From Candidatus Latescibacterota bacterium (lineage in GTDB: Bacteria > Latescibacterota > UBA2968), in assembly GCA_965242535.1 (NCBI GenBank), contig OZ251458.1:926399-990398 (forward strand): a stretch of 64,000 nt of DNA, given 5' to 3'. Below the pieces are notes generated by a model. The model saw only the letters and a list, made by a program, of their open reading frames with translations. It did no database searches and was not told the DNA's origin. Below, piece by piece: positions 14,532 to 15,127 of the stretch. The translations under genes and the position numbers were made by a program. Positions within the stretch are counted from its first letter, which is position 1. Each line of letters starts with the position of its first letter.

Positions 14532-15127
14532 CTAGTACTCTGTAAATTAAATAATTCTGAATTTCAATTTTTCAAGAGCGTGACGGACGGGGTGCCGTAC
14601 ATCAAATAAACCATCGTCCAACATGCCATCTCAAAAACTCCTCAACGAAAGCCATCAAGCACAGCGCGCAAGTCCGTCTCGCAACCCACATCCATTTTGC
14701 AACCCACCTCACAGGCCAACGCATGTCGTTACTATTACAAAAGCGATTGAACTGCTGGAGCAGTTGTACCCCGCTCGCGCTGTGCAAGCCCCTCGGCGCA
14801 TGAGAGCGGCATTTTTTGCCTACTTTTTTTTGCTGTTGAAAAAAAGTAGGTCGCCGAAGGCATCGAAGGCAACCCACGATGCTTTAGGACCAAACGCTTT
14901 AGAAGCCATCTAAAAATTATTGGGACCTAACCCCCTAGCCCCCTTTCCTAGGAGGAAAGGGGGAATAAAGGCCCTTATTCTTGGTTTTAATCTGCGAAAA
15001 GCGAATGTTTTTGCGACTCTCTCAATGGCGGTCCGAGTTTTTAGATGGCTTCTTAGAAAAGCGACCAACTCAGGTACTGATTTGTACGTATCAAATTTGA
15101 GAATAACTTAATTTACAGAGTATTCAG
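14532..15127 (+). repeat. MITE-like repeat copy A with terminal inverted repeats (TACTCTGTAAATTAA / TTAATTTACAGAGTA)
   Basis: Shares 80-95% identical blocks with copies at 23907, 51103, 58167, 60790 and 63740. Contains the perfect hairpin CCTACTTTTTTTT...AAAAAAAAGTAGG. Confidence 0.8.

Follow-up and report, generated by a model that had tools for sequence, protein, structure and literature searches.

Miniature inverted-repeat transposable elements (MITEs) of bacteria, among them Correia/NEMIS of Neisseria, RUP of pneumococcus and Nezha of cyanobacteria (small repeats are reviewed in PMC3184786), are the described systems closest to the sequences analyzed here: six related blocks, labelled c1-c6, in a 64,000-nt stretch of a Candidatus Latescibacterota genome (contig OZ251458.1, positions 926,399 to 990,398), hereafter the window. 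Like these MITEs, the family consists of small (120-590 nt), multi-copy sequences that lie between genes and do not code, and it shows terminal inverted repeats (TIRs), target duplications, presence/absence polymorphism and nested insertions. It differs from them in that the internal core, and not the TIRs, is conserved and found across species, in that one core occurs in several shells, and in that no parent insertion sequence (IS) was found.

The blocks also recall the bacterial interspersed mosaic elements (BIMEs) and clusters of repetitive extragenic palindromes (REPs) of enterobacteria and pseudomonads, which are likewise mosaic, modular intergenic repeats made of hairpin units. REPs are imperfect palindromes of 20-40 nt. 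A REP is recognized by GTAG followed by a hairpin (PMC2817692, PMC3333891), whereas the window elements are ten times longer (350-590 nt) and have TIRs and 8-9 bp target-site duplications (TSDs), neither of which is found in REPs or BIMEs of the kind associated with REP-associated tyrosine transposases (RAYTs); true GTAG-type REPs are separate from the family and serve as its targets. One type of copy inserts into the loop of such REPs, much as the documented REP-targeting elements IS1397, ISPpu9/10, ISPsy8 and ISRm22 do (PMC1525189). Fibrobacterota MITEs of the ISL3 type (L031 2935-3304, L032, L041 and L044, where L001-L048 denote the contigs and loci fetched for comparison) share with the window family a 55-nt module, a TIR shell around a conserved core and, for C-type window copies, a duplication of ~8 bp. 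They differ in having their own TIR, GGCTCTTCAGACATTTCCGGGTG, and a strongly structured core, while the window elements have an unstructured core and TIRs (TACTCTG…, CCATTTG…) that do not start with GGCTCTT, as ISL3 TIRs do. Finally, the palindrome-associated transposable elements (PATEs) of IS200/IS605 and the omega-RNA loci (TnpB/IscB; HEARO) are also non-autonomous, multi-copy and hairpin-bearing, with a sharp boundary like the one that follows the module in other lineages, but they lack TIRs and TSDs, have similar subterminal hairpins at either end and hold a structured RNA beside tnpB or iscB, whereas the window family has TIRs, TSDs and a single hairpin, gives folding z-scores near 0 and no HEARO match, and has no tnpA, tnpB or iscB gene adjoining any copy and no TnpA or TnpB domain among its neighbours.

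The blocks are probably a mosaic, nested, non-coding MITE family of one Latescibacterota clade, moved in trans by transposases encoded elsewhere, and no host function is required by the data. That the blocks are MITE-like, non-autonomous and TIR-bounded had been proposed in an initial annotation of the window, and is borne out here by the TIRs, by tests for coding, by two empty sites and by a related genome in which 8-9 bp of target are cleanly duplicated.

The coordinates first reported for the six blocks are right or very nearly so; the blocks stand far above chance and were recovered independently by a repeat finder, MAFFT, blastn and a profile search (nhmmer). Every module previously quoted was found and the limits of the copies were refined; blastn and nhmmer gave no seventh copy anywhere in the window. 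Motifs diagnostic of the family occur 5-6 times against 0.00-0.01 expected from shuffles (GCATCGAAGGCAACCNACGATGC, 5 against 0.00), and the 26-mer CACAGCGCGYAAGTCCGTYTCGCAAC is carried by five of the six copies, which are the following:

14536-15122, plus strand: c1, complete B-type copy, 587 nt, with perfect 15-bp TIR_B TACTCTGTAAATTAA at 14536-14550 and 15108-15122; contains the core (~14596-14900), a 28-nt hairpin unit and a nested 151-nt MITE
23908-24341, plus strand: c2, complete C-type copy, 434 nt, with perfect 15-bp TIR_C CCATTTGTACCAACT at 23908-23922 and 24327-24341
51096-51446, minus strand: c3, compact B-type copy, 351 nt, TIR_B degenerate
58169-~58487, plus strand: c4, C-type copy without the 3' arm, occupying the tamA-tamB spacer
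60796-60907, plus strand: c5, 3' fragment of B type, ending in TIR_B-right
~63684-63991, minus strand: c6, C-type copy with TIR_C-left and the 5' two-thirds of the core

Both ends are intact only in c1 and c2; those of c3 are degenerate, and c4, c5 and c6 are truncated. The window copies measure 351-587 nt and are non-coding, in keeping with the length (<~600 bp) and the lack of coding capacity of MITEs. Copy c3 can be derived from a c1-like copy via a deletion between two AAATAA repeats, c5 is 95% identical to the 3' arm of c1, and c6 breaks off just upstream of the ribosome-binding site and ATG (63661) of a PhyH gene. The neighbours are ordinary genes, namely those for DUF5686, a D-serine-dehydratase-like enzyme, two PhyH dioxygenases, a DegT aminotransferase, a SelA-like protein, TamB, TamA/Omp85 and a sigma-70 factor; the orientation of the copies relative to flanking housekeeping genes follows no consistent pattern, and no transposase gene lies near any copy in the window.

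The initial annotation described a single element with the termini TACTCTGTAAATTAA and CCATTTGTACCAACT in inverted orientation. Each of these is indeed a perfect 15/15 inverted repeat, but they form two separate pairs and so two subfamilies: TIR_B makes up the ends of c1, c3 and c5, and TIR_C those of c2, c4 and c6. A third type, TIR_A (ATACCAATTTGA...), is present in the window as remnants and is the one that copies in other genomes mostly bear (ATACCAATTTGATTTTAAGTTGTCC…, e.g., L009 5914-6350). TIR_A pairs of ~25 nt bound copies in L009, L007 and L008, TIR_C pairs bound both copies in L018, and still further outer end types occur in chromosome OZ242010.1. Remnants of TIR_A-right lie inside the 3' arms, that of c2 also having a TIR_B-right remnant; an inner inverted repeat, GACGTTCCGCAG … CTACGGAATGTC, stands between TIR_A and the core, and at L007 6334-6494 a TIR_A shell holds a REP where the core would be. 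One core is found in at least three or four distinct TIR shells. Further small elements and modules accompany or lie within the copies:

14413-14531, minus strand: core-less A-type mini shell, ~120 nt, abutting c1; its ends resemble TIR_A (…GCAGGATACGGACGACTTGAAATCAAATTGGTAC) in comparison with L009, L007 and L010
14902-15052, no strand assigned: unrelated 151-nt MITE nested in c1, with a perfect 15-bp TIR GAAGCCATCTAAAAA and a TTA duplication
14749-14776, plus strand: 28-nt REP-like hairpin unit GAACTGCTGGAGCAGTTGTACCCCGCTC inserted in the c1 core
14808-14864, plus strand: hairpin module GGCATTTTTTGCCTAC-T8-loop-A8-GTAGGTCGCCGAAGGCATC of c1
ending at 24223 in c2, starting at 51201 (minus strand) in c3 and ending at 58448 in c4: equivalent hairpin modules

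At the site of the nested MITE, c2, c3 and c5 are uninterrupted through TTTAGAAAAGCG, and the nested element contains a palindrome, CCCCCTTTCCTAGGAGGAAAGGGGG, that recurs at other Latescibacterota loci. The 28-nt unit has 6 matches in the window against 0.01 expected, including one at another core position in c2 (24149-24176) and three outside the family (52515, 52552 and 62520). The family is therefore a mosaic, a conserved ~280-nt core in nested or exchanged TIR_A, TIR_B and TIR_C shells with small inserted elements. The earlier description of one repeated element holds for the relatedness of the copies, but not for their build, which has exchanged shells and leaves four of the six truncated or degenerate.

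Two empty sites in close relatives, together with a clean target duplication in a related genome, establish that the elements are mobile, present or absent as whole units between close relatives. At the c2 site, L015 (DegT 97% identical) matches the window at 23121-23870 (96.7%, DNA) and 24341-25709 (93.9%), with 33 nt in place of the 470 nt of the window; in L016, the genes flanking the c2 position are just 17 nt apart and c2 is absent. At the c1 site, L047 (93% protein identity) and L048 (GCA_022827005.1) have flanking genes with a 4-nt overlap, where the window holds an 842-nt block (14327-15168) consisting of c1, the 120-nt core-less shell and short spacers. Both of the sites tested for presence/absence were thus empty in close relatives (flanking proteins 93-97% identical). 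The 842-nt insertion replaced the first ~13 codons of the DUF5686 gene (13154-~14370, minus strand), displacing its start, and the N-terminus of the protein is unlike that of its relatives (405 aa); the mechanical open reading frame (ORF) of this gene continues to 14509 through element-derived sequence.

The target duplication was found in L018, where two complete C-type copies sit in the loop of a GTAG-type REP, GTAGGGACAGGCCCC[C/T]GTGCCTGTCC. The copy at 10081-10531 has (G)CCCCTGTG on both sides, a perfect duplication within one REP, and that at 5843-6228 has CACGGG-like sequence on both sides, at a REP-loop position equal to that of the left ends of c4 and c6. In the window, the left end of c4 lies in a REP loop (GTAGGGATAGGCCCTGTG followed directly by CCATCTG…), with the REP right arm GCCTGTCC at 58494-58501, after c4; c6 has its left end at the same point of a REP loop. 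The loop of GTAG-type REPs is where C-type elements insert, duplicating 8-9 bp of the target. At the other end of c4, the last codons and stop of tamA (…SLGQAF*, 58488-58501) are formed by the fusion of a REP arm (GGACAGGC) with the truncated 3' end of the copy, and to judge from this junction the c4 insertion may have rebuilt the C-terminal beta-signal of the TamA/Omp85 protein. GTAG-type REPs of the form GTAGGGACAGGCCCCCGTGCCTGTCC, often followed by GAAGATACAA, have nine copies in the window (12973, 27960, 31630, 49491, 52419, 52584, 62226, 62285 and 62440), and no RAYT gene was found within it. Tandem 7-nt arrays (GGGAGAC / GGCGAGA / GGCGAAA) adjoin the REPs at 11305-11436, 27949-28043, 52280-52650 and 62150-62360, and 7-nt arrays beside REPs are arranged in the same way at L018 9960-10060.

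The junctions of c2 repeat GTTG/GTTGA at both sides, and A- and B-type ends are invariably flanked by TA. In the IS630/Tc1-mariner family, the TIRs are flanked by a TA target duplication; the TA flanks of the A and B types would fit an IS630-like enzyme, by analogy and short of proof. Aligning the copies, as had been suggested, defined the termini; the C type has a duplication of 8-9 bp, and the A and B types show only the flanking TA.

Because the elements encode nothing, they would have to move in trans: DDE-type transposases encoded elsewhere would recognize the TIRs and cut and paste the elements. At least two enzymes would be implied, one that duplicates 8-9 bp and another that gives TA in the manner of IS630-like enzymes. 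Composites would arise by the insertion of element into element and by terminal replacement, which would explain why the core is common while the ends differ, and recombination between copies would shuffle a common pool of variants.

As for distribution, the core 26-mer matches at least 14 loci, and the matches listed all lie in two complete Latescibacterota chromosomes from metagenome-assembled genomes (MAGs), OY282377.1 and OZ242010.1; this is the extent of the genome-wide copy count that had been proposed. The flanks of these loci do not match those of the window, which therefore represents a further genome. A protein search with the spurious ORF of the element returned 22 unnamed predicted 'proteins', spread over no fewer than six large Latescibacterota-type contigs; a single contig of 4.95 Mb accounts for nine or more. 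Exact look-up of the DegT protein of the window and of two further proteins (P0123 and P0125) gave no match. On the basis of the genome scan and these protein matches, the family appears to be multi-copy and confined to a small Latescibacterota clade. Six copies in 64 kb, at least 14 loci in two genomes and the empty sites give it the many dispersed, polymorphic copies typical of MITEs. A phage or plasmid origin was rejected, as there is no match in viral contigs or PLSDB plasmids, the module being absent from both. We found no paper on MITEs in Latescibacteria and none containing the module sequence; the family is previously undescribed, though of a well-known kind.

The core, ~280 nt long, is 80-92% identical across at least four Latescibacterota genomes. 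When 21 full copies from four or more genomes are aligned, 148 of the 300 columns do not vary and 114 hold polymorphisms that more than one copy carries, while private substitutions number only 1-4 per ~300 nt in most copies; this balance suggests that the copies are young or homogenized. Mean core identity is 0.84-0.87 within genomes and 0.81 between them. The core contains an invariant long-range inverted repeat (GCACAGCGCG…CGCGCTGTGC) and short repeated motifs (GCCATC, four times at 13-15 nt spacing, and GCAACC[C/A]AC, three times). The internal perfect hairpin of the initial annotation, CCTACTTTTTTTT...AAAAAAAGTAGG, is present in c1-c3, but c4 has a doubly compensated variant that is altered yet paired, and in c6 it is broken by a 28-nt insert identical to that in L010. 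Pairing of the T8/A8 stem is kept by changes that compensate each other, with T:A replacing C:G in four copies, G:C replacing T:A in c4 and another stem in L009. In Latescibacterota copies, homology runs on for ~45 nt beyond GGCATC.

Several observations weigh against a plain family of MITEs mobilized in trans. No autonomous parent with matching TIRs was found, and neither the window nor ~250 kb of related Latescibacterota loci holds an ORF enclosed by a TIR pair; TIR-pair searches of all fetched loci for candidate parents gave short elements only, so that the full-length transposon which the initial annotation had proposed to look for did not come to light there. The core is more conserved than the termini, the opposite of the usual MITE pattern, which hints at constraint on the core or at horizontal spread. 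Identical variants are common to several genomes and are left unexplained by a plain MITE model, and hitch-hiking alone fails to explain why hairpin pairing is kept via compensatory changes across two phyla. Regarding the targets, the duplication at c2 is imperfect (GTTGAGTAC / GTTGATCAG; GTTGAG… / GTTGAT…), with 26 extra nt at the junction, and the TA flanking A- and B-type ends is not separable from the first two TIR bases without an empty site of a simple insertion.

The second phylum came to light when metagenomes were scanned with the 3' hairpin block, which gave 28 loci with only ~55 nt of the core in common (GGCATTTTTGCCTAC-Tn…An-GTAGGTCGCCGAAGGCATC). Four or five of these matches lie inside coding sequence and look like chance; most of the loci are MITEs of ~350 nt, on contigs that exact-protein look-up placed in Fibrobacterota MAGs (Fibrobacter sp. 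or Chitinispirillaceae). The 55-nt hairpin module is the sole part of the window elements shared with these MITEs, whose 8-bp duplications (e.g., AGTAATAT and TGTTTTTA) and TIR match, at the level of sequence, the ISL3 signature seen in ISArsp7 (inverted repeat GGCTCTTCGCGG…, direct repeat 8 bp; PMC6305408, Table 3), making an ISL3-type assignment the apparent one. In Fibrobacterota the module ends a 224-nt core with a folding z-score of -7.07 and nine compensatory pairs in nine sequences. A covariance model of that core finds all Latescibacterota copies at E~1e-10, aligning the hairpin module only and skipping the 130-nt helical domain, and structural homology of the whole core was rejected on that account. 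Stand-alone hairpin modules occur at gene 3' ends, in L019, L021, L022 and L028 (~45 nt in L019, L021 and L028), and across unrelated contigs homology of the module stops sharply after GGCATC. An association with TnpB, IscB or IS66 was rejected, the neighbours in the metagenome loci being ordinary and a lone IS66 fragment in L022 lying ~870 nt away. In five Fibrobacterota loci (L025, L027, L038, L042 and L043), the right arm of the hairpin is split by a ~75-nt insert that is flanked by the 8-nt direct repeat GACAAAAG, a further nested small element.

The core, and above all the 55-nt T/A hairpin module ending in GTAGGTCGCCGAAGGCATC, might be functional and autonomous, acting as a structured RNA or as a recognition site in single-strand DNA, and kept across two phyla of the FCB (Fibrobacteres-Chlorobi-Bacteroidetes) group as cargo in MITE shells of unrelated transposase families. 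We regard this as unlikely, if worth entertaining; were it true, the unit would be no inert filler but a passenger exploiting MITEs, or else a cofactor required by several transposition systems.

A related and quite unlikely alternative is that the core or its hairpin module is a functional structured RNA, whether a small RNA (sRNA) or a guide or scaffold RNA for mobility machinery, carried as a passenger in MITE shells and kept by selection. In its favor are a core that is more conserved than the TIRs and common to species with different shells, stem variation that is compensatory, the recurrence of the module in Fibrobacterota MITEs with unrelated TIRs, where it closes the structured 224-nt core, and the hits of that core's covariance model in every Latescibacterota copy. 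However, those hits come via the hairpin module alone, the long helical domain of the Fibrobacterota core being absent, and the pairing of a palindrome can be kept at the DNA level. The Latescibacterota copies have no excess folding energy (z-scores of -0.09, -0.70 and -0.90 for window copies as RNA; -1.97 as DNA), and their RNAalifold covariation term is +0.05, with compensatory changes confined to the T/A hairpin, so that a globally structured RNA in the window copies was rejected. The core has no sigma-70-like promoter and no intrinsic terminator, and orientation to neighbouring genes is inconsistent. An Rfam search, suggested earlier along with the idea that the core could be a small RNA, gave only a tRNA-Leu at 9783-9869 for the whole window at the gathering threshold; in E-value mode c1 and c2 had only chance-level matches (E>0.8) and the Fibrobacterota element had none. 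The idea is not supported here: known RNA families, HEARO included, were rejected for want of an Rfam match, and a SINE (short interspersed nuclear element) derived from tRNA or tmRNA was rejected because ARAGORN found nothing.

It is very unlikely that the hairpin-bearing core is acted on by a single-strand (HUH/Y1) transposase, REP/RAYT or IS200/IS605 in type, and represents a BIME- or PATE-like unit that was inserted into TIR-type MITEs and then amplified with them. Such a reading would draw on the nine GTAG-type REPs in 64 kb, on the mobile 28-nt hairpin unit, which has GTAC beside its stem and inserts without obvious duplication, on GTAGG at the foot of the hairpin, on the stop of homology after GGCATC, sharp as at the end of an element, and on the stand-alone modules of L019, L021 and L028; REPs, moreover, resemble the subterminal hairpins of IS200/IS605 (PMC3333891, PMC2817692). 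Yet homology among Latescibacterota copies extends past GGCATC, the far end of the core lacks a second, similar hairpin, and no RAYT, TnpA or TnpB gene is found in the window or beside any copy. The elements are TIR-bounded, and the 8-9 bp duplication of the C type is not a product of HUH transposition.

We consider it highly improbable that the copies are immobile, host-recruited intergenic elements with a BIME-like rather than a selfish role, serving in the binding of nucleoid proteins, mRNA stabilization or termination. The repeated GCCATC and GCAACC[C/A]AC motifs could be protein sites, private mutation is low and stand-alone modules are found at gene 3' ends, but presence or absence differs among near-identical relatives at 2/2 sites, the copies are truncated, nested and inconsistently oriented, one insertion displaced a gene start, and there is no terminator or promoter signal.

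Lastly, that the blocks are fragments of a duplicated protein-coding gene can be practically dismissed: most copies do have one forward frame that is almost stop-free, over which gene callers predict 165-180-aa 'hypothetical proteins', but the check for coding constraint set beforehand found none, with variable columns split 45/45/54 by codon position (p=0.51; no third-position bias), 1-nt gaps the commonest indel (90 single-base runs), an open frame that differs between copies, stops or frameshifts in L001, L005 and L007, total stop codons (8.4) at compositional expectation (8.9±3.0) and no Pfam domain recorded for any of the 22 predicted proteins over the element. The initial annotation had called these ORFs spurious, and rightly so by the flat codon-position variation, the 1-nt indels and the unshared frames. 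A small hydrophobic, type I toxin-like peptide (MRAAFFAYFFLLLKK…) was rejected, its frame being broken in those same three loci; its F/K runs follow automatically from the T8/A8 hairpin sequence.

Elsewhere in the window, a low-GC stretch (0.47-0.51) houses a PARIS-like defence pair on the minus strand, made up of AriB/DUF4435 (17444-18304) and an AriA ATPase (18306-~19650), with PADLOC E=6e-21 and 2e-24. Perfect 41-nt direct repeats, each with a hairpin, lie on either side (17388-17428 and 19672-19712), and with them the segment 17388-19712 has the look of an inserted cassette. A type II DNA methyltransferase (26926-27933; PADLOC E=4e-103) adjoins a NucS-like nuclease (25720-26892), and this region, 25720-27933, has the lowest GC in the window (0.41-0.48) and is probably a restriction-modification island. 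Another repeat family is represented by an 85-nt remnant downstream of DegT (25623-25707), which corresponds to two tandem ~260-nt units in L015 (2140-2658); these are called as 83- and 103-aa ORFs and are 75-77% identical to window positions 49562-49826. In L018, 3318-5649, beside an element copy, encodes an AAA_22 ATPase, a 372-aa protein without a Pfam match, a Fic protein and a methylase-HNH fusion, a gene content that may represent a defence or Tn7-like module.

For Latescibacterota, the family means spurious 165-180-aa 'hypothetical proteins' in MAGs, inflated intergenic regions and remodelled gene ends, and masking it would improve gene calls and assemblies for this uncultured phylum. 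Known only from metagenomes, the phylum is also shown here to have undergone recent transposition with targeting of REP loops, and the family provides a clean case of a conserved internal module common to MITEs with different ends, one hairpin of which is found across phyla. Should the module turn out to serve a function in its own right, bacterial MITEs would have a passenger of a new kind.

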